Origin: Gemmatimonadota bacterium
GTDB taxonomy: Bacteria; Gemmatimonadota; Gemmatimonadetes; Palauibacterales; Palauibacteraceae
Direction: 5' to 3'
Assembly (NCBI GenBank): GCA_036476995.1
Contig: JAZGCO010000100.1
Location: 16,428 to 80,427, forward strand
Length of the DNA: 64,000 nucleotides
A model generated the notes under the pieces. The model did no database searches and was not told the DNA's origin. It was given only the letters and a program-made list of their open reading frames with translations. Below, piece after piece: positions 6,695 through 29,853 of this stretch; within the stretch, counting starts at the first letter, position 1, and each line of letters starts with the position of its first letter. Both the position numbers and the translations under genes were made by a program.

Positions 6695-6710
6695 CGGCAC
6701 AGCCGTTGCA
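6695..6710 (+). promoter_or_regulatory. Sigma-54 (-24/-12) promoter candidate upstream of the adaptor/ABC/EBP/HK operon
   Basis: cGGCACagccgTTGCA matches GG-N10-GC with consensus spacing (TGGCACG-N4-TTGCW). The operon it precedes encodes a sigma-54 activator. Confidence 0.45.
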
Positions 6711-6831
6711 TTCTGTGGCCATGATTCGTTGGGCGGAAACCTGATCGTTCATCTTCACGTACGAACACTCGCGGTGGATCCGGGAAGTCGGAGCACGGAT
6801 CTGAAATCAATAGCAGAGAACCAGGGCACGG

Positions 6832-8166: not shown

Positions 8167-8214
8167 CTGACTTCGATCGGACCGATTGGATTACAACACG
8201 GAGGGGTAACGAGA

Positions 8215-8919
8215 ATGAGTGAGCAGATGCCGCTGATACGGATGGAAGAAATCCGGAAAGTATTCACGACGGACGAGTTGGAGACACACGCCCTGTCCGA
8301 CATCCACCTGGAAGTCCAGGACGGTGAGTTTGTAGAGGTGGTTGGTCCCTCGGGCTGCGGAAAGTCCACTCTCCTGTCACTTCTGGGATTGCTCGACACG
8401 CCGACCGCCGGGGATTACTGGCTGGACGGCGAGCCGGTAGCGGACCTCACCGCTTCGGAACGCGCCAAGGTGCGCAACCAACATATTGGGTTCATTTTCC
8501 AGGCGTTCAACCTGATCGGCGACCTGACGGTGGAAGAGAATGTGGAGCTGCCTCTGACTTACCGCGGTATGGCGGCCGCTGAGAGAAAGCAGCGGGTACA
8601 GAATGCCCTGGAGAAGGTTGGGATGTCGCACAGGATTGATCACTTCCCGTCGCAGCTGTCAGGCGGGCAACAGCAGCGCGTGGCCGCCGCCCGGGCGGTA
8701 TCCGGCGACCCGCTGATCCTCCTGGCCGACGAGCCGACCGGTAACCTGGATTCGACCAACGGCAACGCGGTCATGGAATTGCTCCAGGAGCTTCACGAGA
8801 GCGGCTCGACGATTCTCATGGTAACCCACGATCCGCGGTATTCAGCCTATGCCCAGCGGACGATCCGTCTGTTTGACGGTCAGGTGGTGGAAGAAGAGGA
8901 AGCTCTTGCCCCGGCCTAG
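8215..8919 (+). CDS. ABC transporter ATP-binding protein (MacB/LolD-like, stand-alone ATPase)
   Basis: Walker [10 protein letters not shown], signature LSGGQQQRV, Walker [12 protein letters not shown]. No fused or adjacent permease. Confidence 0.85.
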
Positions 8920-8943
8920 AGACGCGCGGGAGGCGGCGGTCCG

Positions 8944-10311: not shown

Positions 10312-11666
10312 ACAACCGATTGGAATGGAAAGGCGGGCGGCTTTCCTTCCAGCGGCACATTCCGCTTCTCGCCCTGTTATCCGGCCTACCGGCCGTCGTT
10401 ATCGCCCTGGTGCTCATCTGGAACGGCGAGCTGGCAGGCCGAATTCAGACCACCCTCACGGTAGTCATCCTTGGAACCTGGGTCGGTCTACTGGCTGCTC
10501 TCCGCGACCGGCTCGTCCGGCCCTTGCATGCGGTCTCAAACCTGCTCGCGGCGCTGCGAGAGGGTGACTATTCGCTTCGAACGAGAGGCTCCCGGCCGGA
10601 TGATGCGCTCGGCCTGATCCTGACCGAAGTGAACGCGCTGGGACAGTCGTTTCACGACCAGCGTCTGGAAGCGCTGGAGGCGGAGAATCTTCTCGAGCGC
10701 CTGCTGACTGTAATCGATGTCGCCCTCTTCGCGTTCGACGATCACGATCAGCTCATCCTGGTCAACCCGGCCGGCGAACGGGTGCTCGGACAGACTAAGC
10801 TAGAGCTCGAAGGCCAGCACGCGGAAGATCTCCGGCTGGCCGATTGCCTCGCGGGCGATACACCGCGAGTCATGGAACTTGCGTTTGCCGAGGGGCTGCG
10901 CCGGTATGAACTCCGCCGCCGGTCGTTCCGGCAGAACGGGCGGCGTCACCGGCTGGTCGTCCTGGCGGACCTGAGCAAGATTCTTCGCGAAGAGGAACGT
11001 ATCGCCTGGCAGAGGCTGATTCGCGTGCTCAGCCATGAAATCAACAACTCACTGACCCCGATCAAGTCGATCGCCGACAGTCTCGACGGCTTGCTCGATC
11101 GGTTGCCGGCTGACGCGCCCCTGCGGGAAGACCTGCAGGAAGGTCTACAGGTCATTTCGGGCCGATCGGCATCCCTCGGCCGGTTCATGTCAAGGTATGC
11201 ACGGCTCGCGAGATTGCCGAGACCGGCGCTGGCCGATGTCGATGTCGATGCCTGGGTGCGGCGCGTGGCCGACCTGGAGACACGTAGGCCGGTCACCGTG
11301 GAGGGCGGGCCGCGTGTGACGATCAAGGCGGACGGGGACCAACTCGACCAGCTGTTGATCAACCTGCTCGACAACGCTCTAGACGCAGCCGATGTTACGG
11401 ATGGAACTGTATCGGTCTCCTGGCGGGCGGATTCCCACCAGATCCAGGTGGATGTTACCGACACCGGGCCTGGCCTGGCGGAGACGGCCAATCTCTTCGT
11501 GCCTTTCTATACGACGAAGCCGGAGGGATCCGGCATTGGCCTCGCGCTCAGTCGGCTGATCGTGGAGGCGCACGGAGGCGTCCTTTCGCTCACAAACCGC
11601 ACTGACGGTCCGGGCTGCGTCGCCAGGGTGCGCCTGCCGCGAACCCTGGAGTCAGCCCCAGAGTAG
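10308..11666 (+). CDS. Sensor histidine kinase (TM-HAMP-PAS-HisKA-HATPase)
   Basis: Two N-terminal transmembrane segments, H-box LSHEINNSLTPI, and ATPase G-boxes (DTGPGL, GSGIGLAL). GTG start overlaps the response-regulator stop codon. Confidence 0.85.
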   Translation: MNNRLEWKGGRLSFQRHIPLLALLSGLPAVVIALVLIWNGELAGRIQTTLTVVILGTWVGLLAALRDRLVRPLHAVSNLLAALREGDYSLRTRGSRPDDALGLILTEVNALGQSFHDQRLEALEAENLLERLLTVIDVALFAFDDHDQLILVNPAGERVLGQTKLELEGQHAEDLRLADCLAGDTPRVMELAFAEGLRRYELRRRSFRQNGRRHRLVVLADLSKILREEERIAWQRLIRVLSHEINNSLTPIKSIADSLDGLLDRLPADAPLREDLQEGLQVISGRSASLGRFMSRYARLARLPRPALADVDVDAWVRRVADLETRRPVTVEGGPRVTIKADGDQLDQLLINLLDNALDAADVTDGTVSVSWRADSHQIQVDVTDTGPGLAETANLFVPFYTTKPEGSGIGLALSRLIVEAHGGVLSLTNRTDGPGCVARVRLPRTLESAPE

Positions 11667-12428
11667 CTGGACGGTCGCCTCGAGGTTCGCCGCCACATGG
11701 TCTGGCTTAAGGTGAGCGTCGGCTCTGTCGAGTCGGCCTGCGTCGAATTTTCCTGTCTGCACCAACACGGTAATCATGCCGACCCCATTCCCACCCAAGA
11801 TGTCGCTCGCAAGATCGTCGCCCACCACCGCCAGCTCAGCCGGCTGGATGTTCAGACGCCGCGCGGCTGCCTGAAAGAAGGCGGGCGCCGGCTTGCCAGT
11901 TAGAACGGCCTGCGTTTCGGCCGCATACTCGAGTGCCGCGACGAAAGGGCCCGCGTCGAGCGTTGGTCCTTGCTCGGGGAGCCAGAAGCGATTCTTGTGC
12001 ACGGCTACGAGACGCGCTCCGCCTCTTAGGCTCGTGAACGCCGCGTTGAGCACTTCGAAGGTGAAGCCCGGTCCCATGTCACCGACCACAACGGCGTCGG
12101 GTGACCGGTCGGTAATCTCGAAGTCTTCGAAATCCTCCCAGGTGGACTTGCTCAACAGCGGATGCACCCGCTCCAGCGCCTCAGAAGCAAGCCACTCTGC
12201 CGTAGCGACCGGTGCCGTGTATACGTGGTCTACACTCACTTCGAGTCCCATGGCTGCCAGCGATCGAACTACGTCGGCCCGAGATTTGCGGCTGGTGTTC
12301 GTACTGAACAAATGCGGGATGCCTTGCTCACGTAGCTGCGACACCGCCTGCCGAGTACCCGGCAGCAGCTCCCGGCCCAGGTAGACAGTTCCGTCCAGAT
12401 CGATGAGTAGCCCACCAGGTGAGTTCAT
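11652..12428 (-). CDS. HAD-superfamily hydrolase, subfamily IIA (NagD-like)
   Basis: DLDGTVY motif I and a C-terminal GDDLASDILGG motif. Start set at the ATG giving MNSPGGLLIDLDGTV; the longer listed ORF extends over a non-coding-looking region. Confidence 0.7.
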   Translation of the reverse strand: MNSPGGLLIDLDGTVYLGRELLPGTRQAVSQLREQGIPHLFSTNTSRKSRADVVRSLAAMGLEVSVDHVYTAPVATAEWLASEALERVHPLLSKSTWEDFEDFEITDRSPDAVVVGDMGPGFTFEVLNAAFTSLRGGARLVAVHKNRFWLPEQGPTLDAGPFVAALEYAAETQAVLTGKPAPAFFQAAARRLNIQPAELAVVGDDLASDILGGNGVGMITVLVQTGKFDAGRLDRADAHLKPDHVAANLEATVQLLWG

Positions 12429-12529
12429 GTCCGCCCTTCCTGTCTTCACTTGCCGGCAACCGAAGCCGGAACGAGGTTCCTGCCTGCAAGCTAGAATCGA
12501 TATCCCTTCTGTCAAAATTCGGAGACTCC

Positions 12530-13783
12530 ATGCCCGAGCTTCGTCCGCTCGTTGGCCTGAGATACATGGATCCAGCCGGTTCGGCTGAGGAATTGCTGGC
12601 GCCGCCTTACGATGTGATTGATGAGGCGCAGGCGGCAGAACTGCGGAGCCGGAGTCCGTGGAACGCGGTGCGGCTCGTTCTTCCCGAAGGGGAGGGCGAA
12701 GCCCGCTACCAAAACGCATCCCGTCTGCTTCAGAAGTGGAAGCGGGAAGGTATCCTGGGCCGAGACCCGGAGGCGGTGTACGCCTGTCGGCAGACTTTTC
12801 CCTGGAATGGTGCTGAGGAGCCGGTAAGCCGAGTGGGCCTCTTCGCCGAGCTACGCCTGACACCTTTCGCGGACGGCGAGGTGCTCGCTCACGAGGAGAC
12901 GCAAGCAGGTCCCAAGAAGGATCGCCTCGCTCTTACGCTCGCGTGCCGGACTCAGCTCTCACCGGTATTCATGGTGGCGCGCGATCCTGACGGACGCCTG
13001 CAGCAGCTGCTCGGCCATGCTACAACGGGCCAGCCCGTGCTCGTAGCGGATATGGACGACGGAGTTCGCCACGAACTCTGGCGCATCGATGACCCCGATC
13101 TCCGGAACGCAGCGTGCGAGGCGGCCGCTGCGCAGTCTCTGATGGTTGCAGATGGACACCATCGCTATGAGACGGCGCTGGCTGCTTCTGAACTGCTAAG
13201 CGATCTGGTAAAGTCTCGTTATCTATTGACGTTTGTGGTTAGCGAGGCGGATCCCGGCCTCCGAATTCTCCCGACCCACCGGGTGCTGGCGGGCAGTTCC
13301 GAGGGCGTCCTCCAATCCAGCTGGAGTGAGAGTCTCGGGTCTGACTTCTCCGTAGAAATGATTGACAGCTCCGGAGCGGCTGAGACCAGTTTCCTTCCGG
13401 AGGCAGAGGAAATTATCGTACATGTTCCGGGACAGGAGACATTTAGGATCAGGGCCACAGCAGAAGCCTGTGAGCGCGTGGAGCTTACGCCGGTGACGCG
13501 CCGAATCGCCGCGGCCGTCTTCGACCGGCTGGTGTTGCGGCCTCGTCTCGGGATAACGGCCGACGAAGCAGCCAGCCGGTCGCTCCTTTCCTATCATAGA
13601 CTGGCCGAGGATGCAGCCCGGGAGGCGGCAAGAGTTTACGGCGGAGCCGCATTCATTTTGCCGCCTGTTTCCCTGGACGATGTGTGGGCGGAGGCAGAGG
13701 CGGGCCGACGGATGCCCCCAAAGACCACGTATTTCGAGCCGAAGGTGCCTTCCGGCCTACTGTTTCGGCCTCTTGAAGAGTAG
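12530..13783 (+). CDS. DUF1015 family protein
   Basis: N-terminus MPELRPLVGLRY...APPYDVI and a DGHHR motif, both typical of DUF1015. Confidence 0.6.
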   Translation: MPELRPLVGLRYMDPAGSAEELLAPPYDVIDEAQAAELRSRSPWNAVRLVLPEGEGEARYQNASRLLQKWKREGILGRDPEAVYACRQTFPWNGAEEPVSRVGLFAELRLTPFADGEVLAHEETQAGPKKDRLALTLACRTQLSPVFMVARDPDGRLQQLLGHATTGQPVLVADMDDGVRHELWRIDDPDLRNAACEAAAAQSLMVADGHHRYETALAASELLSDLVKSRYLLTFVVSEADPGLRILPTHRVLAGSSEGVLQSSWSESLGSDFSVEMIDSSGAAETSFLPEAEEIIVHVPGQETFRIRATAEACERVELTPVTRRIAAAVFDRLVLRPRLGITADEAASRSLLSYHRLAEDAAREAARVYGGAAFILPPVSLDDVWAEAEAGRRMPPKTTYFEPKVPSGLLFRPLEE

Positions 13784-13786
13784 GAA

Positions 13787-14644
13787 ATGGAATCGCAGCG
13801 CACGATCCACGTAGCCCATAGTCCGGACTCGGATGACGCGTTCATGTTCTACGCCCTGGCCGAAGGCATCATCGATACGGGAGATCTTCGGTTCGTTCAC
13901 GAGCTGGAGGGAATCCAGTCACTCAATGAGCGGGCCATGAAAGGCGAACTCGAGGTTAGCGCGGTCTCGATTCATGCGTACGCCTACCTGACTGACCGTT
14001 ACCTGCTGCTGCCGCACGGAGCCAGCATGGGAGAGCGGTACGGGCCACGCCTCGTCAGTCGCAGCGCGCTCGATCTGTCGGAGGTGAAGAAGTCCGTAGT
14101 AGCGGTGCCCGGCAAGCTGACGTCAGCCTACCTCGGCCTCAAACTGTGGGCTCCCGAGATTCGGACCGTCGATGTTCCGTTTGATGAGATTCAGGAGGGC
14201 GTGGCGGCTGGAGCATACGACGTGGGCCTGATCATTCATGAAGGGCAGCTAACGTACGGCGATAGCGGACTTCATATGCTCCTCGACCTGGGTGAGTGGT
14301 GGCATGAAGAGACCGGTCTTCCGTTACCCCTGGGCGGCAATGTGATACGACGCGACCTGGGCGACGAACTCATTCAAAGGGTTTCGAGACTGTTGTTCGA
14401 GAGCATTCGGTACTCGCTCGAGCATCGGGAGGCCGGAATGAACTATGCGATGCAGTTCGCGCGCGGCCTGGAGCCGCAGGTGGCGGACGAGTTCGTGGGC
14501 ATGTATGTCAATCAACGCACGCTCGACTATGGTGCCGATGGGCGGGCCGCGGTCAGCCTATTCCTGGAGAAAGGGTTTGAGGCGGGCATCTTTCCGGGTC
14601 CGGTCCACGTCGAGTTCGCTGAGATGGCCCATGCCAGCTCTTAG
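13787..14644 (+). CDS. Menaquinone (futalosine pathway) MqnA/MqnD family protein
   Basis: HSPDSDDAFMFYAL resembles the SPCPNDTFIFYAL motif of the PF02621 family. The MqnA versus MqnD subfamily is not resolved. Confidence 0.5.
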   Translation: MESQRTIHVAHSPDSDDAFMFYALAEGIIDTGDLRFVHELEGIQSLNERAMKGELEVSAVSIHAYAYLTDRYLLLPHGASMGERYGPRLVSRSALDLSEVKKSVVAVPGKLTSAYLGLKLWAPEIRTVDVPFDEIQEGVAAGAYDVGLIIHEGQLTYGDSGLHMLLDLGEWWHEETGLPLPLGGNVIRRDLGDELIQRVSRLLFESIRYSLEHREAGMNYAMQFARGLEPQVADEFVGMYVNQRTLDYGADGRAAVSLFLEKGFEAGIFPGPVHVEFAEMAHASS

Positions 14645-15418: not shown

Positions 15419-16480
15419 TCAGACGAGCCAGACCACAAACAGTCCGTAGGCAGTGAGAAGCAGCACTCCCTCCGCACGTGTGATGCGCGAGCCGGAGTAC
15501 GCGATCGGGAGCAGCGCCACACTGAATATCAGGGCCGGGATTACCTCGCGCCCGACAGTGATCGGAGAAAGGGGCAGAGGCTTGATCATCGCTGCGCCGC
15601 CCAGAACGAGTCCAAGATTGAAGATGTTCGAACCGATTACGTTTCCCACCGCAATGTCCCCGAGCCTGCGAACAGCGGCCGCCACGGTCGAGGCGAGCTC
15701 GGGAATCGAGGTCCCAACGGCCACGACGGTAGCTCCGATGATCTCTTCTGAGACGTTGTAGTGCCGTGCGCCCGCAACAGCCGCTTGGACCAGCCACTGC
15801 GCCCCAATCAAGAGGAGGGCAAGGCCGGCCACGATGCGTGGAACCGGCGGGATCTTCCAGCGGCGCAAGGCGGAGGGCAGGGGAGTGTGGTCCGGTAATC
15901 CTTGTGGTTCGGACACGGTAGCGGAGGCCTCTTCCGCGGAGGCCTCCTCTTTCGTCGCACTTCGACTCAGTCGGTTTTCATCTTTCATGCCCCAGCGTAT
16001 CAGGCTGGCCAGGTATATGGCGAAACCCGTCATGAGGGCCAAGCCTTCCAGCCTGCCCAGCATTTCGTTCCACGAGAGAAGCACCACGATGGCAAGGACG
16101 AAAATCAGCAGTGGCCCCTCACGCTCAATCAGGCGGCGGTGAACCGTGATGGGTCTGATGAGAGCGGCGATACCAACGATCAGGCCGACGTTCGCGATTG
16201 TGGAACCCATCACGTTTCCTACGGCCAGGCCCTCCCGGTTCTGGAGCACCGCGGTGAAGGACACGACGAGTTCCGGAGCCGATGTTCCGAACGCGACCAC
16301 CGTGAGACCCAGCAGGAGGGGATTGACCCCACGCTTTTCGGCCAGGCTGGATGTGCCGGTGACGAGCCAGTCAGCCCCAATGGCGAGCGAGACGAGACCG
16401 AGAATGAACAGGCCTAGCTGGATGATCACAACCCGGCCGCGTCTCCCGTGCAGTGTGGATAACCCGCCCTCAGCTCCCAC
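15419..16480 (-). CDS. Ca2+/cation antiporter (CaCA family, YrbG-like)
   Basis: Two alpha-repeats with GTSxPE motifs (GTSAPELVVS, GTSIPELAST), about 10 transmembrane segments and an acidic central loop. GTG start. Confidence 0.85.
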   Translation of the reverse strand: MGAEGGLSTLHGRRGRVVIIQLGLFILGLVSLAIGADWLVTGTSSLAEKRGVNPLLLGLTVVAFGTSAPELVVSFTAVLQNREGLAVGNVMGSTIANVGLIVGIAALIRPITVHRRLIEREGPLLIFVLAIVVLLSWNEMLGRLEGLALMTGFAIYLASLIRWGMKDENRLSRSATKEEASAEEASATVSEPQGLPDHTPLPSALRRWKIPPVPRIVAGLALLLIGAQWLVQAAVAGARHYNVSEEIIGATVVAVGTSIPELASTVAAAVRRLGDIAVGNVIGSNIFNLGLVLGGAAMIKPLPLSPITVGREVIPALIFSVALLPIAYSGSRITRAEGVLLLTAYGLFVVWLV

Positions 16481-16565
16481 ACGCCCAATCGCATGTGGAC
16501 AGCCGTGGACAATCTAGTCGTCCATATCATCTCATCTGTAACTACATACGAAATCTAGAGATGTA

Positions 16566-17069
16566 CTATCCTGTCAGTTTTTCAGCCTTCGCGGGAAGCT
16601 CTGCCGGCATCGGTTTGTCCCCAGTGGGGAAATCAGCATCAACTCTCTCGCTATCGACTTTCCGCTTGGACTTTGGCTCGCCCATGTGGAGGCTACCATC
16701 GACCTGCCCACCTTCATCCAGTTTCACGCGACGGCTCCTGATGTCGCCTTCCACTCTGCAGGTGGCCTGAAGTTCTACACGGCTGTCCGCTGACACACTG
16801 CCTTGTACCCTGCCAGCCACAATGCAATCTTGCGTCTCAATATCGCCGACCACGATGCCTTCCTGGCCGACAACAACGCTCTTGCCAGCTCGAATGGATC
16901 CCTCCACTCGACCTTCCACGCGGATCGTGCCGTCGCTCGAGCAGTCGCCGACGATCTTCATACCGGGCCCGACGATCGATACGAAATCGCCCGCGTCCCG
17001 CAACCCATTCTCGCTTCGAGGCTTCATCTCCACAGCTGCCTTTCTCCTGATTTCACCCTGCCTGTCCAT
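16566..17069 (-). CDS. Bactofilin (DUF583 polymer-forming cytoskeletal protein)
   Basis: Repetitive beta-helical bactofilin pattern (VxGxVxG repeats) with a charged C-terminal tail. Confidence 0.8.
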   Translation of the reverse strand: MDRQGEIRRKAAVEMKPRSENGLRDAGDFVSIVGPGMKIVGDCSSDGTIRVEGRVEGSIRAGKSVVVGQEGIVVGDIETQDCIVAGRVQGSVSADSRVELQATCRVEGDIRSRRVKLDEGGQVDGSLHMGEPKSKRKVDSERVDADFPTGDKPMPAELPAKAEKLTG

Positions 17070-17864: not shown

Positions 17865-18791
17865 CTAGGTGAACAGGTCGGTTCGGGCCTGCGGGACCAG
17901 CTTCGTCACCAGACGCTCAAAATCCGAAGAGTCGTGGAAGGCGAGCCGAATCTCGCCCGAGGTCGCCGTGCTGAGCCGTACGGCCACCCGGGTGCCGAGC
18001 TCTCGGGCCAGCAATGTCTCCGCTCGCCTGGCTACTGGATCCTGCTTCACCGGGCTGCGAGGCCGCTTCTTTCCGGCGCCGGCGCCAAAGTTTCGCGCCT
18101 GGTTCTCGGCCTGTCGGACGGACAGCCGCTTCGCGACGATCTTCCGGGCCAGCTCGAGTTGATCCTTCCGAGCCTCTACGCTTAGGATCGCCCGTGCATG
18201 ACCCGCCGTGATTTTCTCCGCAGCCAGAAGCTTTCGGATAGCCTCGGGGAGGCCCAGTAGTCGCAGCGAATTGGCTACGGCGGGCCGGCTTTTGCCTACC
18301 CGTTCGGCCACCTGCTGCTGTGAGAACCCGAAGGTCTCAACGAGCGTTTGGTAGGCCATCGCTTCATCCAGCGCGCCCAGTGACTCTCGCTGGAGATTCT
18401 CGACGAGCGCGCTCAGGAGCATTTGCTCGTCCGAGAACTCGCGTACGACGGCGGGGGCCGCCTCCCAGCGGAGACGCTGAAGGGCGCGAAAACGCCTCTC
18501 GCCAGCTACGATCTCCCATTCGTCACCCGCAGCCCGGACCACGAGGGGCTGTAGTAAGCCGTTGTGCTTGATCGACTGCTGCAACTCCTCCAGCGACTCG
18601 GACTGAAACGCTGACCGCGGCTGAAACGGATTCGGGCGAAGGCGCTTCAGGGGTATCTGGCGAACCGACCCGGCATCCGGAGCAGGCTCGTCCATGTAGT
18701 CACCCAGGAGCGCACCGAGACCCTTGCCGAGGCGGGTACGGTGGTTGTCAACCAACTTTGGCTCTCCTGTAGTCCTTGCGAACGATCTCAC
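17865..18791 (-). CDS. parB: Chromosome partitioning protein ParB
   Basis: ParB box (GERRFRA), an HTH, and the N-terminal GKGLGALL motif. Start is GTG at 18791, or TTG at 18755 overlapping the parA stop. Confidence 0.9.
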   Translation of the reverse strand: MRSFARTTGEPKLVDNHRTRLGKGLGALLGDYMDEPAPDAGSVRQIPLKRLRPNPFQPRSAFQSESLEELQQSIKHNGLLQPLVVRAAGDEWEIVAGERRFRALQRLRWEAAPAVVREFSDEQMLLSALVENLQRESLGALDEAMAYQTLVETFGFSQQQVAERVGKSRPAVANSLRLLGLPEAIRKLLAAEKITAGHARAILSVEARKDQLELARKIVAKRLSVRQAENQARNFGAGAGKKRPRSPVKQDPVARRAETLLARELGTRVAVRLSTATSGEIRLAFHDSSDFERLVTKLVPQARTDLFT

Positions 18792-19533
18792 CAGCCAGAC
18801 TCAAATAGCCTCGCGCACCGGTCGACAGCACGTCGTACACAGCAATTGGCTCCCCGAAACTCGGAGCCTCTGCAAGACGGACGTTTCGCGGAATATACGT
18901 GCGAAAAACGCGGGTACCGAAGTATTCCTTCACATCCCCCGCGACCTGCTTGGACAGGTTCAGCCTGGAGTCGAACATCGTGAGCAGTACGCCCTCGATA
19001 TCGAGCTCGGGGTTCAGGCCCCGTTGAACGATTCGAACCGTGTTCAGGAGCTGACTAAGGCCCTCCAGCGCATAGAACTCACACTGAATCGGGATGAGAA
19101 CAGTGTCGGCTGCGACGAGGGTGTTGAGTGTCAGCAGGCCCAGTGATGGCGGACAGTCGATGAGAATGTACTCGTAGCGATCCCGAATGGAGGCGATAAC
19201 ATTCTTCAGCACTCGCTCTCGGTTCGGCCATTCGATCAACTCTACTTCAGCGCCGGTTAGATCTCGGTTGGCGGGAATCGCGTCTAAGTGCGGGAGGTGA
19301 ACCCCCTCGTAGATGGCGTCTTGGGCTGGCCTACGGTTTACCAGACAGTCATAAACGGAGGGCCTGCCTCCCCCTTTCGAAATCCCCAGCCCGCTTGTGA
19401 GGTTGCCTTGCGGATCACAATCGATCACCAACGTTTTTTTTTCGTGGACGGCCAGCGAGGCTCCGAGGTTGATGGCAGTCGTTGTTTTTCCGACCCCACC
19501 CTTCTGGTTGGCAATTGAGATTACCCGAGCCAT
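18748..19533 (-). CDS. parA: Chromosome partitioning ATPase ParA (Soj)
   Basis: Deviant Walker A motif KGGVGKTT. Confidence 0.95.
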   Translation of the reverse strand: MARVISIANQKGGVGKTTTAINLGASLAVHEKKTLVIDCDPQGNLTSGLGISKGGGRPSVYDCLVNRRPAQDAIYEGVHLPHLDAIPANRDLTGAEVELIEWPNRERVLKNVIASIRDRYEYILIDCPPSLGLLTLNTLVAADTVLIPIQCEFYALEGLSQLLNTVRIVQRGLNPELDIEGVLLTMFDSRLNLSKQVAGDVKEYFGTRVFRTYIPRNVRLAEAPSFGEPIAVYDVLSTGARGYLSLAGEIVRKDYRRAKVG

Positions 19534-19699: not shown

Positions 19700-19715
19700 T
19701 GTTTCCCGTGAAACA
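19700..19715. promoter_or_regulatory. parS centromere-like site
   Basis: tGTTTCcCGTGAAACa matches the 16-bp parS consensus TGTTTCACGTGAAACA at 15 of 16 positions. It lies in the mnmG-parA intergenic region. Confidence 0.6.
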
Positions 19716-19738: not shown

Positions 19739-21670
19739 TCAAGAGCGCGCGGCCGAAGGTGACGCGGCAGCTTTGCCCTGCGCTCTGAACTTACGGACCT
19801 CTACCAAGAGTGCGAGCAAGTCGGCTGGGGAAATCCCCGGGATTCGGGAAGCTTGACCGAGCGTCGAAGGACGGATTTGGTCGAGCTTCTGCCTGGCCTC
19901 TGTAGAAAGGGAGACCAGACCTCGATACGGAAGGTCCGACGGCAAGGGAAGCGACTCCCGTTCGCGAAGCTGCCCGGCGCGTTCTTTCTCGCGGCTGATG
20001 TACCCGTCGTATTTGGTCTCCATTTCCAAAACCGTTACAGCGTCCGCACCGAGGGCCGATTCGATTGTCGGCTCCAGTAGTTCTCCCAGTACTCCCAGCT
20101 GAACGCCTGGCCTCTTCAGCAAGCGCTGGGCGGGCTGCGTTTCGCGAAGTTCGGCGCTTCCGATCGACACCAGGTACGAATTGACCCGAGCGGGTAAGGC
20201 GCGAGCCTGTCCAAGCCAGTCCCGGCCACGATCGAGCGCCTCCAGGTGCGAGTCCAGGATTCTCTTCTCGGCGTCCGTCAGAAGGCCGAGTCGCGTGGCC
20301 GTTGGCCCGAGACGCTGGAGACAATTGTCCTGCCGAAGTATCAGGCGAAACTCGGCCCTGGAGGTGAACAGGCGATACGGCTCGTCCACTCCGCGGGTGA
20401 CCAGATCGTCGATCAAGACGCCCAGGTATGCTTCATCGCGGGCCGGGACCCAGGGTTCCCGCTCGGAGACCGCGAGAGCAGCGTTGATGCCGGCTACAAT
20501 GCCCTGTCCGGCCGCCTCCTCGTAGCCTGTCGTGCCGTTGATCTGCCCAGCGAGATAGAGGCCAGGAAGAGGCTTGAGCTCCAGGGTCGACGTTAGCTGC
20601 GTAGGCGTGAAGAAGTCGTACTCTATCGCGTAGCCGGGCTGGGTCATCCGCGTCGCTTCAAGGCCTGGGATGCGGGCCAGAAACCGGCGCTGAACGTCGG
20701 CCGGGAGTGAGGTTGAGAGGCCGTTTACATACAACTCGGCAGTCTCAAGTCCTTCAGGCTCGAGAAACACCCGATGGCTCTCCGCATCGGGAAACTTGAG
20801 CACCTTGTCCTCGATCGACGGGCAGTAGCGGGGGCCCTGGGCTGAACTAGCTCCGGAGTACATCGCCGATTCTGCCAGGTTGTCCGCGACCACTTCCTTG
20901 ACGGCAGGACCCGCCTGAGTGATCCAGCAGGGCCGCTGAGGGAGGATTTCCGCGAGCTCCCAATGTGAAAACCGGAGGCCGTTCAGCTCGCCGTCCTGCC
21001 GTTCGAAACGGCTGAAGTCCACTGTACGGCCATCGATTCGCGGTGGTGTGCCCGTTTTGAATCGCCCCGACTCCAGTCCCAGATCGAGTAGTTGCTCGGC
21101 GAGCGGCACCGAAGGAGCGTCTCCCGCTCGCCCTGCTCCTATCTTCACCGAGCTGCCCATCAAGATCTGGCCGCGGAGAAATGTTCCCGCGGTCAGAATA
21201 GTGCAGCGGGCCCTAAACACTGTCCCGTCCTGGCACTCGACCCCTGCTGCACGACCTCGATCCGTATGGAGCGCAACCACACTGCCCTGATAGAGATCCA
21301 GCCCGGCTTCCAACTCTAGAAGTGTTCGTACGGCACGTGAGTAGAGACCGCGGTCACACTGGGCCCTTGGCGCCCAAACCGCAGGACCCTTCGACCGGTT
21401 GAGCATGCGGAAGTGGAGCGTCGTCTGATCTGCTGCGCGCCCCATGATCCCGCCGAGAGCGTCCACCTCCCGTGCTACCGTACCCTTGGCGATTCCACCG
21501 ATGGCCGGGTTGCACGACATCTGTCCAACACGGGCGAGAAAAGACGTTACCAGCAGTGTCTTCGCTCCCATCCTGGCGGCGGCTCGCGCCGCCTCGCAGC
21601 CGGCATGGCCTCCCCCGATTACCAGAACGTCGTACGACAATTTCTTCGCCCCTCTCCCGATTCCGTCCAT
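19739..21670 (-). CDS. mnmG: tRNA uridine 5-carboxymethylaminomethyl modification enzyme MnmG (GidA)
   Basis: N-terminal FAD-binding motif [16 protein letters not shown] and overall GidA similarity. Start set at the Met preceding the FAD motif. Confidence 0.9.
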
Positions 21671-21748
21671 TTGCGTTAACTTGTAGCCGCAATATCGGCA
21701 CTGCACGGTGGCGGGGCTAGTTCAGGACAGTCAGGAATCGCGGTAGGC

Positions 21749-22903: not shown

Positions 22904-24277
22904 CTACTTTCCAACGCAGAAGCTGCCGAAGACAACGTCCAGTATGTCGTCGGTGGCTACTACGCCAAGCAATTCCTCCAGGGCAAGGGTTGCTTCGGCC
23001 ACGTGTGTAGCCGCGATCTCGGGAGGCCCCGTCTGTAGGACCTCCTGGAATGCTTCGAGTTCCGTTCTGGCGCGCTCAAGAGCTCGCGATTGCCTTATCT
23101 TTGTAATAAAGGGTGGCGAATCTGCGCTCCGGAGACCGCCGAAGGCCTCCTGAGCGAGGCGCTCCCTCAGCGCGGCCAGACCCTCGCCTGTCACTGCGGA
23201 AACAGCAATAGATCCGTCCGGATGCTCAGGTCCGGCAGCGCTCCCTGGCAGCATATCCACCTTGGTCCACACCCTGATCACTCGCCGGGCGTCTCCTACC
23301 GGCCGCTCCTCCTCGAGTTGTGCCAGGAATCGCTCCTCTTCGGGGTCCACGCCCCCTCCGGCCTCGGCGCATAATAGGATCACGTCGGCCGCGGCCAGGT
23401 AGCTTCGCGCTACCTCTACGCCCATTCCTTCCACCTCGTCTGTGGTCGAGCGTAGGCCGGCCGTATCCACCAGCCGGAAGGGGTATCCGTCTACCGCGAT
23501 CACGGACTCGATAGCGTCTCTTGTGGTACCCGGAACCGGCGTAACTATAGCACGTTGCGTTCCATGTAAACTATTGAACAAACTAGACTTACCGACGTTC
23601 GGCCTGCCGGCCAGAACGACCAGGGCGCCGTCCCGTAGGAGCTCCCCCTCGGGAGCCAGGCTCAGGAGTTCTAGCATCTGAGCATGTAGTTCCCTGGCCG
23701 ATGCAGAGATCGTCCCCACGTCCAGGACGCCGTCATCTTCTTCAGGGAAGTCGATATCGTAGGCCAGGAGGGCCTGTAGCTCGAGTAGACCGCGGCGCAA
23801 TTGCTCCACCCGGCACGAAAGTCCTCGCTCCAATTGATGGACAGCTGCGCGCTGCATGGCTGGCGATCGGGCGTCGATAAGGTCTAGGGTGGCCTCCGCC
23901 TGTATCAGATCCAGCTTCCCGTTGAGGTATGCCCGGCGGGTGAACTCTCCACGAGCGGCGGGCGCTGCTCCGGCGGCGATCACGGCGTCCAGCACCCGGT
24001 GCGGCACGATCGCTCCACCGTGCGTGCTGATTTCCAATACATCCTCTCCCGTGTAGGAGGCGGGCGCCGAGAATAGCGTCACCAGGGCGTGATCCAGAAC
24101 CTCGCCGGTCTCGGGGTCGTGTAGGTGACGCTGGCTGCTGTGTCGGGGTTGGAGCCCGGAGAGACCGAGCTGTGAGCAGATTTCAGATACGTCCGGACCG
24201 CTGACCCGGATGAGCGCCACTCCTGCTCTTCCGGGCGCCGTAGATATTGCGGCTACCGTCCGGTTCACAGCGACCAC
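22904..24277 (-). CDS. mnmE: tRNA modification GTPase MnmE (TrmE)
   Basis: G-domain (GRPNVGKSSL) and the C-terminal CVGK motif. Confidence 0.9.
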   Translation of the reverse strand: MVAVNRTVAAISTAPGRAGVALIRVSGPDVSEICSQLGLSGLQPRHSSQRHLHDPETGEVLDHALVTLFSAPASYTGEDVLEISTHGGAIVPHRVLDAVIAAGAAPAARGEFTRRAYLNGKLDLIQAEATLDLIDARSPAMQRAAVHQLERGLSCRVEQLRRGLLELQALLAYDIDFPEEDDGVLDVGTISASARELHAQMLELLSLAPEGELLRDGALVVLAGRPNVGKSSLFNSLHGTQRAIVTPVPGTTRDAIESVIAVDGYPFRLVDTAGLRSTTDEVEGMGVEVARSYLAAADVILLCAEAGGGVDPEEERFLAQLEEERPVGDARRVIRVWTKVDMLPGSAAGPEHPDGSIAVSAVTGEGLAALRERLAQEAFGGLRSADSPPFITKIRQSRALERARTELEAFQEVLQTGPPEIAATHVAEATLALEELLGVVATDDILDVVFGSFCVGK

Positions 24278-24289: not shown

Positions 24290-26083
24290 TCAGCCCGTTT
24301 GCGAGCGGGGCTTCCCTCGCTGCTTTCCAACACTGTCCTCACGCGAGGCTTTCATCTTGGCGTGCGCCGCCCGCCGCTCGCGAGACAGGTAGATCTGCTG
24401 GGGAAGCGAGGCGAGGTTGCTCGTCGTGTAGTAAAGGTTCAGCCCGGACGCAAAATTCAGAAAGATGAAGGTAAGAAAAACCGGCATCGCCCAGCCCATC
24501 ATCTTCATCTGGGCGTTCATCTCCATTCCGCGCTGGCTGATACGCTGAACCAGGAACATCGACGCACCCATGACGAGCGGAATGATATACAGAGGGTCTT
24601 TCAGCGACAGGTCCGGAAGCCACAAGAACGGCACTCCCCTGAACTCAATGGTGCCCTGAAACACGAAGAAGAGCGTAAACAGGATCGGCATCGGCACGAG
24701 CATCGGGAGACAGCCCGACAACGGATTGATGTGATGCTCCTTGTAGAGCTTCACCATCTCCTGCTGCAGCCGCTGCGGGTCCTCCTTGTATCTCGCCTGG
24801 ATATCCTTCATGAGCGGCTGAACCGCCATCTGCTCCATCTGCGACCGCATCGATTTCTGATACAGCGGGAACAGGATAACCCGCATCATCACACCAAATA
24901 CGACCAGCACCCAGCCATAGGCCAGACTAAGTGTGCTGTGGAGCCAGGTGAGCACCACCAACACGATCGCCACCAGGGGGCGCATGATGGGCTGGATCCA
25001 ACTAAAACCGTATGGGTTTACATTCTGCAGGCCTTCGCCGACCGCTTCCAGCCGGCCGTAGTCCTGCGGTCCGAGATACGTCTCGAACGCGAAACCGGCT
25101 GTACCGGCGGGAACTGGCATTGAGGCGGTGATCGCTGCCGCGTGCTCTTGTTCCACGCCCTGCGCCACGAGACCTCCGAAGTCACTCCTGTCCGGATCCG
25201 CTACGAGCGCCACCAGAAAATACTTGTTCTTTATGGCCACCCACCGGAACGGGCCTCCGTCGGCCATGCGGATCTGACCCGCCTTGACCTTGTCCAGGTT
25301 GGTTGCACGGATGCCACCACGGCGATCCTTTACCACATAGGCGAGCTCCCTGTGATCCTCGTCCGGGTTCTTCTCGTTGGTTCTGAGGCCGTTTCCGAGC
25401 GAGACGAGAACGGTATATCCCCGCTCAGGAACACCTTCCAAGCGGCCTTCCGTCTCGATCACGTAAGACCCGGGTGTAAACCGGTACGTGGTCACGAAAG
25501 CCGCATCGGAGCCCGGAAAGCGGTATGTGAACTCCAGCTCGCGGGGCGAATCGCCAGGCCTCAAGAGCAACTCCCGCTCCGACGGCTCGAACGTCGCATT
25601 CTGGAGCGGAACGGTGTCTCGGCCGAGTGTAATGGCGTACTGGAGCAACCGATCGCCGGCACGCACCAATTCCACGCCGGTGAGCCCATTCCCGTTCTCT
25701 ACGTATGAATCGTACTGAGTCAGCTCCGCTCCAATAACCGCTGCGCCGATCGTTGAAAACCGGAGATTGAACACGTCAGTTTGAACACGGATTGTGTCCG
25801 CCGCCTCCCCAGGGCCGCCTGGCAGCGCTGGCTCCAGCCCATCAGCCGGGACGACGGCCGGACTCAGTTGTTCATCTACCGGACGGCCGAGGACGTCAGC
25901 CGCCTGCGCCAGTCCTGGAGCGGTGGGTTCCGCTTCACGTGGGTCTACTCGGGGCGGAGCGGTCGCCTCTGGAGAGTCGGCCCTGAAGGTTTCCGGAGGG
26001 GGTGCTGCCGGCGGAAAGAGGACGTTGGAGAGGATAACTACTCCAATCATCAAGACCACCGCCAGCAGCGCTCGTCTCTGCAT
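24290..26083 (-). CDS. yidC: Membrane protein insertase YidC
   Basis: Large periplasmic domain followed by the conserved 5-TM insertase core. Start set at MQRRALLAVVLMIG, just after the yidD stop. Confidence 0.9.
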   Translation of the reverse strand: MQRRALLAVVLMIGVVILSNVLFPPAAPPPETFRADSPEATAPPRVDPREAEPTAPGLAQAADVLGRPVDEQLSPAVVPADGLEPALPGGPGEAADTIRVQTDVFNLRFSTIGAAVIGAELTQYDSYVENGNGLTGVELVRAGDRLLQYAITLGRDTVPLQNATFEPSERELLLRPGDSPRELEFTYRFPGSDAAFVTTYRFTPGSYVIETEGRLEGVPERGYTVLVSLGNGLRTNEKNPDEDHRELAYVVKDRRGGIRATNLDKVKAGQIRMADGGPFRWVAIKNKYFLVALVADPDRSDFGGLVAQGVEQEHAAAITASMPVPAGTAGFAFETYLGPQDYGRLEAVGEGLQNVNPYGFSWIQPIMRPLVAIVLVVLTWLHSTLSLAYGWVLVVFGVMMRVILFPLYQKSMRSQMEQMAVQPLMKDIQARYKEDPQRLQQEMVKLYKEHHINPLSGCLPMLVPMPILFTLFFVFQGTIEFRGVPFLWLPDLSLKDPLYIIPLVMGASMFLVQRISQRGMEMNAQMKMMGWAMPVFLTFIFLNFASGLNLYYTTSNLASLPQQIYLSRERRAAHAKMKASREDSVGKQRGKPRSQTG

Positions 26084-26084: not shown

Positions 26085-26324
26085 CTATTTGTGCTCGTGA
26101 CTCGGGTCGGAGAGCGGCACCGGGTCAGGGCCAAGTCCGCCGAACGGATGGCATTTGAGGAGCCTGCGGACACCCAACCACGCGCCCCGCCGGACCCCGT
26201 GCGTGTCGATCGCGATACGCGCGTATTCGGAGCATGTCGGGGTGAAGCGGCAGGCCCCTGGTAGCAACGGCGACACGCCGGCCTGATATGCCTGAATAAC
26301 CAAAAGCAACACTCTCTTCAGCAC
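26085..26324 (-). CDS. yidD: Membrane protein insertion efficiency factor YidD
   Basis: CRFTPTCSEYA and CHPFGGLGPDPVP motifs. Confidence 0.8.
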   Translation of the reverse strand: MLKRVLLLVIQAYQAGVSPLLPGACRFTPTCSEYARIAIDTHGVRRGAWLGVRRLLKCHPFGGLGPDPVPLSDPSHEHK

Positions 26325-26677
26325 CCCACCTCCCGCGTGCAGCGTTCAAAATCGGCCGCCAGAGCCGCAGCGCTCGCGCCGTACGCCTCGGCACGCGCTC
26401 TCACTATCATGTCTCTACTACCACCCGCGTGTCGCCGTGCCGGAAGCCAGCTTGTGCGAGCGATCTCACGCAGCAGCCGCCGGACCTTGTTTCGCTCGAC
26501 AGCGCTATGGCCGCGCTTGGCCACGATCACGGCCAGCCTCGATTCGGACCCGGGCGAGCTGGTTTCGATGATATCAACGAAACGGCCCCGTACGCGTTTC
26601 CCGCCGCGAAACACGGCAGAGATGTCCGTAGTTCTACGTAGCCGGGACTGTCGGGGATAATCGTAGCGAGCTTTCAC
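26318..26677 (-). CDS. rnpA: Ribonuclease P protein component RnpA
   Basis: RNR-like basic motif and position between rpmH and yidD. Confidence 0.8.
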   Translation of the reverse strand: MKARYDYPRQSRLRRTTDISAVFRGGKRVRGRFVDIIETSSPGSESRLAVIVAKRGHSAVERNKVRRLLREIARTSWLPARRHAGGSRDMIVRARAEAYGASAAALAADFERCTREVGC

Positions 26678-26712: not shown

Positions 26713-26880
26713 CTAGCGGCGGCGCTTCCAGTGGGTCTCGTCGCTCACCGTCAAGGAGTGACGGCCTTTTTTCCGCCGGCGGGACAAGACCGCACGGCCT
26801 GCGCGCGTTTTCATTCGAGCGCGGAAGCCATGATCTTTCAGTCGTTTTCGCCGACTCGGATTTCTATATGTCGGTTGCAT
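26713..26880 (-). CDS. rpmH: 50S ribosomal protein L34 (absent from the ORF track, under 60 aa)
   Basis: Manual translation gives [45 protein letters not shown] plus a 10-aa C-terminal extension. This is L34-like throughout. Confidence 0.7.
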
Positions 26881-27086
26881 TATCTATTTCGCTCTTGCGG
26901 CTACTACCGTCGCCACGACACTCGCTAAACAGCCGCATATGCTAGGCGCAAAAAGGTTTGTTGTCAACGTGTTTTCCGGCACCGGTGCTGGGGATTCGGA
27001 AAAGTTTGACAGCCTCTGACAAGCGATCTACGTTGCCCGACCGCCAGTCCCCTTCCGCTCACATTACTACGATACGAAGGTCTTGG

Positions 27087-28463
27087 ATGGAGCTTACGGC
27101 TAGCGAAGTCTGGTCTTCCATAACCGATGCGGCGCGCGAGGTTCTGCCCGAGCAGACGTTCCGGACCTGGCTCGCAGCAACGGAAGCGCTGAGCCTTTCC
27201 GATGATACCCTGGTTGTCGGTGCGCCGACCCGATTCGCGGCTGAATGGATCGAGGACAAGTACGGCGGACGCCTCTCCGAGCTTGCAGGTCGCGTCTTGG
27301 ATCGCCCTCTCGAACTCACCTTTGAGCACCACGGAAGTCTTGAGCGACCCGATTTTCCGGAGTTGCCACCGCTTGGCGAAGTAGGGGGAGACGGTCCGGG
27401 CTCAGCACCGGCGTCTGCGGTCTCTCGGCGGGGCGCGGCCGGTAGCGGCCTGAACGAAAGATACCGGTTCGAACGATTCGTTATCGGCTCGAACAACCAG
27501 TTCGCCGCCGCCGCCTGCCAGGGCGTAGCCGATTCGCCCGCTCAGTTGTACAACCCACTCTTTGTGTACGGCGACACAGGGCTTGGCAAGACGCACCTGA
27601 TGCACGCCATCGGGCACGCGATCCTCGACCGTTTGCCAGACCGGCAGATCGCGTACGTGACATCCGAGCGCTTTACGAACGAAATGATCTCGGCCATTCA
27701 GAGTGGCCAAACCGCGGAGTTCAGGCAGCGGTATAGGTTGATTGATGTCCTCTTACTGGACGATGTGCACTTCCTCGGAAACAAGGAGGGGACTCAGGAG
27801 GAGTTCTTCCACACGTTCAATACGCTCTACGATGCTCACAAACAGATCGTGATTACGAGCGATCGGCCTCCTTCCGAAATCCCAGGCCTTCAGGAGCGCC
27901 TCGTGTCCCGGTTTGAGTGGGGCCTGGTTACCGACATTAAACCTCCGGACTTCGAGACGCGTGTCGCCATTTTGCAGAAGAAGGCGGATGAAGACCGGCT
28001 TGTTCTCGAAGAAGAGGTGATTACGTACATCGCGCGCAACAGAAAGACCTCTGTGCGACAACTCGAGGGCGCTGTTATCAAACTCCTGGCCTATAGTTCG
28101 TTGACTCGACGCGAAATATCGTTGGACCTGGCGCGAGAAGCCCTGGGAGCTCGGCCCGGTGAAGAGCGGGGATCGCCGGTCACCGCCGAGGAAATCCGGC
28201 GGCGCGCGGCAAACGAGTGGGCGGTATCCGTCGAACAGTTGGTCTCGAAGCGGCGCACCAAAACCCTAACGATCCCTCGCCAGGTTGCGATGTATCTGAT
28301 AAAGACATCGCTCGACCTTCCCTACACGGAGATAGGTACCCTGTTCGGTGGCCGGGATCATTCCACGGTGATTCACTCGGTAAACAAGGTGGAGGCAGCA
28401 ATGGTGGGCGACCGAGAGTTACGCTCGCGAGTTCAGCGACTGCAGGACGACCTCGTTCGGTGA
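27087..28463 (+). CDS. dnaA: Chromosomal replication initiator DnaA
   Basis: AAA+ Walker A GDTGLGKTHL and C-terminal DnaA-box binding domain. Start at MELTASEVW. Confidence 0.95.
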   Translation: MELTASEVWSSITDAAREVLPEQTFRTWLAATEALSLSDDTLVVGAPTRFAAEWIEDKYGGRLSELAGRVLDRPLELTFEHHGSLERPDFPELPPLGEVGGDGPGSAPASAVSRRGAAGSGLNERYRFERFVIGSNNQFAAAACQGVADSPAQLYNPLFVYGDTGLGKTHLMHAIGHAILDRLPDRQIAYVTSERFTNEMISAIQSGQTAEFRQRYRLIDVLLLDDVHFLGNKEGTQEEFFHTFNTLYDAHKQIVITSDRPPSEIPGLQERLVSRFEWGLVTDIKPPDFETRVAILQKKADEDRLVLEEEVITYIARNRKTSVRQLEGAVIKLLAYSSLTRREISLDLAREALGARPGEERGSPVTAEEIRRRAANEWAVSVEQLVSKRRTKTLTIPRQVAMYLIKTSLDLPYTEIGTLFGGRDHSTVIHSVNKVEAAMVGDRELRSRVQRLQDDLVR

Positions 28464-28483
28464 TTCGGGGTGTCGGTAATTCT

Positions 28484-28720
28484 GTGGACAAGCGTGGAGC
28501 GCTTGGGACAAAAACCGGGTTACGCCTCTTCGCTGTGGATAGCTGTGGAACACTCGACCACGATCCACAGTTCGTCCACATGGGACATCTAGCCGAAAAG
28601 TAGCTCGGAATGTACGCCTTGAAGCCACCGGTGAGTCTTTTTCAACATACCCACACAGCCTACTATTACTACGTATTTTAGATGTATAGAAGGAAGTACT
28701 AACACCGTCTCTTGAAAACG
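28484..28720. other. oriC candidate: DnaA-box cluster plus AT-rich DNA-unwinding element between dnaA and dnaN
   Basis: Five DnaA-box-like 9-mers: TGTGGACAA at 28484, TGTGGATAG at 28535, TGTGGAACA at 28545, ATCCACAG at 28563 and TCGTCCACA at 28573. They are followed by an AT-rich tract at 28661-28720 in an otherwise GC-rich genome. Confidence 0.6.
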
Positions 28721-28749
28721 TGACATTCTGCCCGGGAAGAAGGTTCTAG

Positions 28750-29853
28750 ATGAAGTTGTCGCTTACCCGCGAGTCGTTGCATTCCGGCCTCGGGGCTGTT
28801 GCAGCCACGATTCCCACGAAAACGACGTTGCCGGTCCTATCCAACCTCCTGATGCAAGCCAAGGATGGGAAGCTGACGATCCGAGGCACAGATCTGGACA
28901 TGACGGTATCCGTAACGGTCGATGCTGAGATTGAGAATGAGGGTGCGGTAACAGTCCCGGCACGGAAGCTGGCTGAGATTACACGCGAACTTCCTGAAGC
29001 ACCGGTACATATCGATGTAGATGGTGTTCAGATTCAGGTAAGCTGCGGGTCCAGCCGGTTTAAGCTTTTCGGAATACCAGAAGAGGAGTTTCCGGCCTTA
29101 CCGGAATTTGACTTCGCCGGAAGCTGGAAGATACAGGCCCATGTTCTCCAGAATCTGATCAGCCATACAGCGTTTGCCGCCTCCAACGAGGAGAGCCGTC
29201 CGATACTTAACGGTGTGCTGTGGCAGATTCGGCCGGGCACGCTAGCCATGGTCGCGACAAACGGCCACCGCCTGGCGAAGATGATCGTGAAGATCGACGG
29301 GGCGAGTCCGCCCGATGCCGATCTCATAGTGCCACCGAAGGCGCTACTACAGGTGCAAAAGCTATTTGACAAGGATGCGGAGCTGGAAGTCGCAGACTCG
29401 AAGAACCACCTCGCGTTCAGGTCACCCGGAAGGTCTGTATATACTCGGCTGATAGAGGGCCCGTACCCGAATTACGAGCAGGTTATTCCGAAGGACAACG
29501 ACAAGCAGGCTACAGCGAACAAAGACAACCTGGCAGCTGCGATACGGCGTATGGCAGTTCTTGCGAGCGACCAGACACATCGGGTCCGTATGGCGTTTTC
29601 GGAAGGAAACGTCTCCTTTCGTGTCCAGACGCCGGATCTAGGCGAAGCAGAGGATGAGATGCCGCTTGACTACTCGGGCGACACTCTCGAGATCGGTTTC
29701 AATGCGAACTATCTTCTCGAGGTGCTCCGGTTCATGCCGGATGACGACGTGATGATCGGATTCAAGGCGCCTGAGCGGGCCGTGACTTTCAGGCCCACAA
29801 GTAACGACTCCGATTACTTGTGCCTGGTTATGCCGCTGCGGCTTCTCGACTAG
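28750..29853 (+). CDS. dnaN: DNA polymerase III beta sliding clamp
   Basis: Three-domain clamp of 367 aa, positioned immediately after dnaA. Confidence 0.95.
   Translation: MKLSLTRESLHSGLGAVAATIPTKTTLPVLSNLLMQAKDGKLTIRGTDLDMTVSVTVDAEIENEGAVTVPARKLAEITRELPEAPVHIDVDGVQIQVSCGSSRFKLFGIPEEEFPALPEFDFAGSWKIQAHVLQNLISHTAFAASNEESRPILNGVLWQIRPGTLAMVATNGHRLAKMIVKIDGASPPDADLIVPPKALLQVQKLFDKDAELEVADSKNHLAFRSPGRSVYTRLIEGPYPNYEQVIPKDNDKQATANKDNLAAAIRRMAVLASDQTHRVRMAFSEGNVSFRVQTPDLGEAEDEMPLDYSGDTLEIGFNANYLLEVLRFMPDDDVMIGFKAPERAVTFRPTSNDSDYLCLVMPLRLLD

Follow-up and report, generated by a model that had tools for sequence, protein, structure and literature searches.

The replication origin of the chromosome in this uncultured Gemmatimonadota bacterium is very probably the 286-base spacer between dnaA and dnaN (positions 28464-28749). 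Coordinates refer throughout to the window, i.e. the whole 64-kb stretch of DNA that was analysed. We hold with high confidence that the spacer is the chromosomal origin or, at minimum, the part of the origin in which DnaA assembles and the duplex is unwound, and that it represents a one-part oriC of the basal unwinding system (BUS) type; it is very likely the unwinding region of that origin. The original prediction of an oriC between dnaA and dnaN is backed by a complete module of two DnaA-boxes, GC-rich spacer, DnaA-trios and AT-rich DNA, by the conservation of that module and by its match to published BUSs. Directly observed are the anatomy of the sequence, the statistical excess of its motifs, their selective conservation and the conservation of the residues with which DnaA contacts trios. 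The dnaA-dnaN oriC is of the ordinary BUS type, a textbook feature because its architecture is like that of the well-studied Bacillus subtilis origin; it holds no surprise and reveals no new mechanism.

The gene order around the spacer was derived from Pfam matches and from the genes called on the 123-kb contig JAZHCF012564425.1 (GCA_044345325.1), which includes the window (Table 1). Positions 28464-28749 coincide exactly with the dnaA-dnaN intergenic region, and the surroundings are of the origin type: rpmH and dnaA are divergent, the genes are directed outwards from the dnaA-dnaN spacer, and an origin-linked set (mnmG, parA, parB, mnmE, yidC, yidD, rnpA and rpmH, together with dnaA and dnaN) is present in an order common to relatives. 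The arrangement proposed at the outset, with rpmH-rnpA-yidD-yidC-mnmE on one side and dnaA-dnaN on the other, is thus confirmed. Past dnaN lie Yip1, NUDIX and metallo-beta-lactamase genes, and neither recF nor gyrB is present in the gene order around dnaA-dnaN given by Pfam and the contig gene calls. The GC content of the window is 61.8% (38.2% AT), rather than the roughly 65% that had been supposed for the genome. A parS-like site, TGTTTCCCGTGAAACA, with one mismatch to the 16-nt consensus, was found at 19700-19715, between mnmG and parA and upstream of parA; parAB and this site, the latter expected near an origin, are about 9 kb from the dnaA-dnaN spacer.

Table 1. Genes, DnaA-boxes and related elements of the origin region and of the second box cluster (positions within the window; mismatches are to the box sequence TTATCCACA)
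Feature	Position	Strand	Sequence, evidence or remark
Perfect box	16454-16462		TGTGGATAA; only perfect box of the window
Box of second cluster	16494-16502		TGTGGACAG; 2 mismatches; same sense as TGTGGATAA
Box of second cluster	16504-16512		CGTGGACAA; 2 mismatches; same sense as TGTGGATAA
AT-rich tract by second cluster	16515-16565		Second most AT-rich of the window
bactofilin	16566-17069	-	Pfam and contig gene calls; M23 peptidase gene beside it, between parB and bactofilin
parB	17865-18791	-	Pfam and contig gene calls
parA	18748-19533	-	Pfam and contig gene calls
mnmG	19739-21706	-	Pfam and contig gene calls
mnmE	22904-24277	-	Pfam and contig gene calls
yidC	24290-26083	-	Pfam and contig gene calls
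yidD	26085-26324	-	Pfam and contig gene calls
rnpA	26318-26677	-	Pfam and contig gene calls
rpmH	26713-26880	-	Pfam and contig gene calls
dnaA, initiator protein	27087-28463	+	458 aa; domains I, III and IV; Pfam DnaA_N, Bac_DnaA, Bac_DnaA_C
Distal box pair 1	28482-28503	-	TTGTCCACA at 28483-28491 (+ strand TGTGGACAA); 1 mismatch
Weak partner in pair 1	~28494-28502	-	GTGGAG core
Box pair 2, first	28534-28542	-	CTATCCACA (+ strand TGTGGATAG); 1 mismatch; pair spans 28533-28554
Box pair 2, second	28544-28552	-	TGTTCCACA (+ strand TGTGGAACA); 2 mismatches; starts 10 bp apart
Box pair 3, first	28561-28569	+	CGATCCACA; 2 mismatches
Box pair 3, second	28572-28580	+	TCGTCCACA; 2 mismatches; starts 11 bp apart
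Distal tandem box	28639-28647	+	TTTTCAACA; 9 nt; 2 mismatches, one of them C to A within the core
Proximal tandem box	28648-28655	+	TACCCACA; 8 nt, directly after the distal box; 2 mismatches
GC-rich spacer	28656-28659	+	CAGC; 4 nt; from the sequence
DnaA-trio array	28660-28672	-	CTACTATTACTAC; top CTA CTA TTA CTA C; lower 3'-GAT GAT AAT GAT-5'
AT-rich DNA-unwinding tract after the trios	28673-28720	.	Highest AT of the window
dnaN ribosome-binding site	28734-28743		GGGAAGAAGG
dnaN, sliding clamp, downstream origin flank	28750-29853	+	Pfam DNA_pol3_beta, all three domains

The evidence that bears most closely on this assignment is a complete box-box-GC-trio-AT unwinding module at 28639-28705, which had gone unnoticed in the original prediction. 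The top strand at 28639-28672 reads TTTTCAACA-TACCCACA-CAGC-CTACTATTACTAC, i.e. two co-oriented boxes, followed by 4 nt of GC spacer and then by four DnaA-trios; the four GAT/AAT trios (28660-28671) start 4 nt past the proximal box and 12 nt past the distal tandem box. The orientation is that of a BUS, with the TTATCCACA-sense boxes upstream on the strand that carries CTA and the trios on the complementary strand. By analogy with characterised trios, the lower strand at 28660-28672 is predicted to be the single-strand binding site for a DnaA oligomer. A point against the oriC reading is that both proximal tandem boxes are weak, with two mismatches each. The 60-bp tract at 28661-28720 had already been described as unusually AT-rich, and it is so: its 66.7% AT compares with 38.2% for the window, it ranks first for stretches of 30, 40 and 100 nt and ties for first at 60 nt, and only 12 of about 64,000 60-mers are as AT-rich or more so. 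Its description as an AT-rich unwinding element stands as regards composition, but the element is not just AT-rich DNA, since it begins with an ordered array of DnaA-trios.

As a control, a set of 88 dnaA loci, drawn from many phyla and totalling 1.58 Mb, was scanned under strict rules, namely a box with at most two mismatches followed, after a gap of at most 16 nt, by at least three [CT]TA triplets. On the plus strand of the dnaA-dnaN spacer lay 37 of the 43 matches, and the window gave a single match, at 28660.

Further DnaA-boxes lie upstream of the module within the spacer. A mismatch scan found five 9-mers within one or two mismatches of TTATCCACA at 28483-28580; these are the at least five degenerate boxes formerly placed at 28484-28581, all of which were recovered at positions agreeing within 1 nt, and three more sites with two mismatches (28471-28479, 28639-28647 and 28647-28655) can be added to them. 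Of the TCCACA/TGTGGA hexamers of the 64-kb window, 5 of 29 fall inside the approximately 100 bp at 28483-28580. Within each pair, the two boxes start 9-11 bp from one another, roughly a helical turn; the pairs at 28561-28580 and 28639-28655 are plus-sense and point towards the site of unwinding. The two minus-sense pairs are part of a 22-nt direct repeat, with copies CTGTGGACAAGCGTGGAGCGCT (28482-28503) and CTGTGGATAGCTGTGGAACACT (28533-28554) that are 73% identical and 51 nt apart; each copy carries one pair with its boxes about 10 bp apart, and the distal part of the origin therefore consists of duplicated double-box units. The rpmH-dnaA spacer (26881-27086), on the other side of dnaA, contains no DnaA-box with two or fewer mismatches. 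A bipartite oriC, like those of B. subtilis and H. pylori, would have a box cluster on each side of dnaA, and the origin is thus in one part.

Relatives were collected by protein search, together with the contigs carrying the exact proteins. One Gemmatimonadota MAG encodes a DnaA with 93% identity to that of the window, and in many others, some of them labelled Candidatus Palauibacterales, the identity is 72-78%. When the spacer was aligned with nine others, from relatives at 74-93% DnaA identity (10 spacers in all), the trios were nearly invariant, with a column identity of 0.96, followed by the tandem boxes at 28639-28655 (0.84), the ribosome-binding site and start of dnaN (0.79) and the distal boxes (0.72-0.77; pair 1 0.72, pair 2 0.72 and pair 3 0.76-0.77), whereas the sequence between motifs gave 0.50-0.58 (about 0.53 flanking box pair 1). 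The best-conserved 34-nt stretch of the spacer begins exactly at 28639. Such values for the tandem boxes and trios, set against about 0.5-0.6 elsewhere in the spacer, indicate purifying selection on boxes and trios. Within box pair 2, the motif GTGGATAG.TGTGGA is kept in most relatives. The box-box-GC-trio-AT layout recurs in one register in 14 Gemmatimonadota spacers, including those of relatives with a DnaA identity of 46-52%, with the register in three of the 14 (L002, L003 and L010) placed by hand from degenerate motifs. Over the same 14 spacers, the 50 nt from the first trio are 0.52-0.72 AT, compared with 0.27-0.47 AT for each whole locus; the AT-richness of the tract after the trios is kept in relatives but its sequence is not. 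The trios are thus selected for sequence and the tract that follows them for composition.

The initiator protein is consistent with such a site. The exact DnaA of the window is on record in GCA_044345325.1. Among solved structures it comes closest to the B. subtilis DnaA of the BUS cryo-EM complex (8BTG; E = 4e-124). In B. subtilis DnaA, the trio bases are held by Asn187, Ile190, Ile193, Arg202 and Glu228 (Pelliciari et al. 2023, PMC10721633); the aligned positions of the window protein, N198, I201, I204, R213 and E239, carry the same residue in every case. In domain IV, the signature RDHSTVIHS, compared with RDHTTVIHA in B. subtilis, fits recognition of canonical boxes by the window DnaA, as judged from the sequence.

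DnaA binding, unwinding and origin firing at 28464-28749 are taken over by analogy from the B. subtilis system, from which the following scheme may be drawn. Domain IV of DnaA would bind both the paired boxes of 28483-28580 and the tandem at 28639-28655, as proposed because of the canonical box sequences and the conserved domain IV. From the two co-oriented proximal boxes, ATP-DnaA would oligomerise one way across the 4-nt GC spacer and, via the initiator-specific motif of its AAA+ domain, would engage the lower-strand trios 3'-GAT GAT AAT GAT-5' (28660-28671), growth of the oligomer onto the trios being postulated because of homology with the B. subtilis BUS. Strand stretching and base capture would then open the duplex, with opening spreading into 28673-28720 as the helicase loading site. 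The distal box pairs probably supply DnaA to the proximal site, a role that upstream boxes have in B. subtilis incC.

The B. subtilis basal unwinding system was reportedly the subject of work by Richardson et al. 2016. In the incC region of B. subtilis oriC, the BUS comprises DnaA-boxes 6 and 7, DnaA-trios and an AT-rich tract (Richardson et al. 2019, PMC6669920; PMC8287927; PMC10721633), and has been written 3'-AATAGGTGT TTAGGTGT CCGG GATGATAATGAAGATGAT-5' (Pelliciari et al. 2021, PMC8287927 supplementary file 3). The similarities with the window are extensive: the site is between dnaA and dnaN; it has 9+8 co-oriented boxes (TTATCCACA-AATCCACA in B. subtilis) and a 4-nt GC spacer with the same polarity; the trios begin 12 nt after the distal box and their first 11 bases, CTACTATTACT, are identical; an AT-rich tract is present downstream and additional box pairs upstream of the unwinding module; and the five trio-contact residues of DnaA are the same. 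The differences are that the proximal boxes are weaker in the window (TTTTCAACA/TACCCACA rather than TTATCCACA/AATCCACA), that it has four clear trios in place of six, and that its origin is in one part, without a box cluster upstream of dnaA, in a genome of 62% GC.

In the BUS search of PMC8287927, a DnaA-box had to have three or more trios no farther than 16 bp away, with 3'-NAN-5' as the trio and GAT or AAT preferred; the window has such trios at 28660-28671. The commonest arrangement, in 57% of predicted BUSs, is a tandem of two co-oriented boxes beside the trios (PMC8287927), and that arrangement is present here (9+8 at 28639-28655). The Listeria BUS has the same layout and spacing, and the 4-nt spacers are CCGG in B. 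subtilis, CGCG in Listeria and AGGA in Gemmatimonas aurantiaca (PMC8287927). For G. aurantiaca T-27, of the same phylum, an oriC has been predicted just after dnaA (DoriC ORI97017024, NC_012489 positions 1656-1689; PMC8287927), with the predicted BUS 3'-AACATGTGT TCAGGTGT AGGA GACGACGATGAT-5' (PMC8287927 supplement). It shares with the window its dnaA-dnaN location, the layout of 9+8+4 plus trios and the spacer of 12, both being predictions; in contrast, it reads TTGTACACA AGTCCACA TCCT CTGCTGCTACTA with two trios of the GAC type, whereas the window has four GAT/AAT trios. A BUS between dnaA and dnaN is thus already predicted for the type strain of the phylum, to which the window adds another example; a literature search for Gemmatimonas and oriC returned no title or abstract on an origin in this phylum. 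In E. coli oriC (box R1 and the 13-mer DUE), too, a TTATCCACA-sense box points towards a GC-rich spacer and an AT-rich DUE (PMC8287927), and the DnaA oligomer binds one strand of the DUE; it differs, however, in that it is not next to dnaA, its trios are degenerate, it employs IHF and low-affinity sites, and it lacks the tandem 9+8 boxes.

By this assignment, the predicted origin is located at base resolution in the genome of an uncultured member of the Gemmatimonadota. With such a position as an anchor, MAG scaffolds may be oriented, growth rates estimated from the peak-to-trough ratio of read coverage, and quality controlled by means of skew. The 14 coherent Gemmatimonadota examples strengthen the case that the box-plus-trio module is conserved well beyond the Firmicutes, including in genomes of 62-75% GC.

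The GC skew follows gene orientation across the window; it does not single out 28.5 kb and lends no support to an origin. Genes are on the plus strand at 1-14.6 kb, mostly on the minus strand at 14.6-26.9 kb and mostly on the plus strand from 27 kb on, and the skew is positive at 1-15 kb, negative at 15-28 kb, positive at 28-30 kb and weakly positive from 27 kb on. The cumulative skew, calculated over these 64 kb only, has shallow local minima at about 28 kb and 33.6 kb and a maximum at about 15 kb. When orientation and side were separated in a regression over genes, the side term came out small and with the wrong sign (-0.02), whichever breakpoint from about 5 to 45 kb was used; orientation and side are confounded on the left, because the left flank consists of two single-orientation blocks. 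When 10-kb flanks were compared at seven loci, the left was negative in all six loci having a left side and the right was positive in four of seven. In the block of twelve genes at 1-14644, all on the plus strand, the GC skew is unusually positive (+0.03 to +0.11 per kb), on the side where negative skew would be expected from an origin at 28.5 kb; because of this plus-strand block, the skew test within the window is uninformative.

Other explanations of the dnaA-dnaN spacer need to be weighed against this background. AT content is generally higher in intergenic than in coding DNA, and the window contains 84 boxes with two mismatches, from which it might be argued that the box cluster and AT tract are chance features of ordinary intergenic DNA. 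That argument is effectively refuted, and we give it next to no credence: the spacer holds eight sites with at most two mismatches in 200 bp, a density reached in none of 200 block shuffles (where the maximum was usually three and never above six); a run of four YTA triplets occurs once on both strands of the 64-kb window (128 kb), as the trio array, compared with an expected 0.01 occurrences; and conservation falls selectively and exactly on the motifs in 10-14 genomes. DnaA-boxes also commonly control the dnaA and dnaN promoters, and in several phyla oriC lies away from dnaA, so the spacer could be a DnaA-controlled regulatory region only, acting in dnaA autoregulation or in the control of dnaN transcription, with replication starting outside the window; the failure of the in-window skew to mark the spacer would agree with this. 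We consider it improbable, since an operator has no need of four phased trios 12 nt from tandem boxes and then the most AT-rich DNA of the window, and since conservation within the spacer is highest at the trio block. Furthermore, no sigma-70-like promoter (nor an intrinsic terminator) was found in the dnaA-dnaN spacer, and the conserved promoters are located in the box-free spacer between rpmH and dnaA.

A second dnaA-linked cluster with stronger boxes had been named in the original prediction as something that would count against the dnaA-dnaN site. A second cluster, with the only perfect box of the window, does exist at 16454-16512, but it has no trios and does not displace that site. It is situated where the mnmG-parA-parB-M23-bactofilin block ends, in the spacer that separates bactofilin from the Na/Ca-exchanger gene, 12 kb from the dnaA-dnaN origin and about 3 kb from the parS site. 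As the true origin, together with its AT tract, it would be analogous to the gidA/parAB-near origins of other phyla. In its favour are its perfect TTATCCACA accompanied by two further boxes, the adjoining AT-rich tract, and the variation of its boxes in the window and two close genomes, which keep all three boxes, at only 2 of 27 columns, compared with 37 of 127 columns elsewhere in that spacer (p = 0.012). The contrast in orientation-corrected skew is also strongest near 16.5 kb, but its sign is terminus-like. Three boxes are, however, no more than the usual maximum of the shuffles, inspection of the sequence by eye shows no trios, even when the rule is relaxed to 3'-NAN-5', and the AT tract flanks the TTATCCACA-sense boxes on their 5' side, where it is wrongly placed for growth of a DnaA filament and for a BUS. 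Conservation is also limited: one or two boxes are left in relatives with a DnaA identity of 74-77%; in two loci (L085 and L089) the AT tract is lost and a deoxyhypusine-synthase gene is inserted in its place; and the cluster is absent in L002, no box being seen in the one relative with 52% DnaA identity that covers the region. The second cluster as origin was thus rejected for its lack of trios, wrong polarity and weak conservation, and is in our view very improbable; the dnaA-dnaN spacer is retained as the origin.

The sequence of the second cluster suggests that it may instead be an accessory DnaA-binding site, an operator or a titration site. DnaA binds at the centromere of Caulobacter, where it couples initiation with chromosome segregation, and datA and DARS titrate or re-activate DnaA. 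We suggest, tentatively, that the lineage keeps a second DnaA-binding locus at 16454-16512, which might titrate or re-activate DnaA in a manner like datA or DARS, or might couple initiation to segregation, because the boxes outlast their surroundings in three close genomes and one or two of them persist farther away. A scan for promoters and terminators around the second cluster found none.

Some minor features of the two spacers beside dnaA deserve mention. Rfam gave no match in the dnaA-dnaN spacer; its one match, a weak one to AsdA inside dnaA (E = 0.11; 23 bits compared with a gathering score of 52), was taken as chance. A 43-aa ORF that was called inside the dnaA-dnaN spacer in two loci (L084 11486-11617 and L086 11486-11617) overlaps the box cluster and has no Pfam match; it is probably spurious. 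Just before the ATG of dnaA is a trio-like sequence, CACATTACTACGATAC (27060-27075), that is not conserved past the relative with 93% identity and is probably due to chance. Across nine genomes, the only conserved elements of the rpmH-dnaA spacer are divergent promoter hexamers. The rpmH promoter is TTGACA-17-TAGCAT on the minus strand (26967-26939), and that of dnaA has TTGACA at 27006-27011, followed after N17 by TACGTT in the window and by TACAAT in most relatives.
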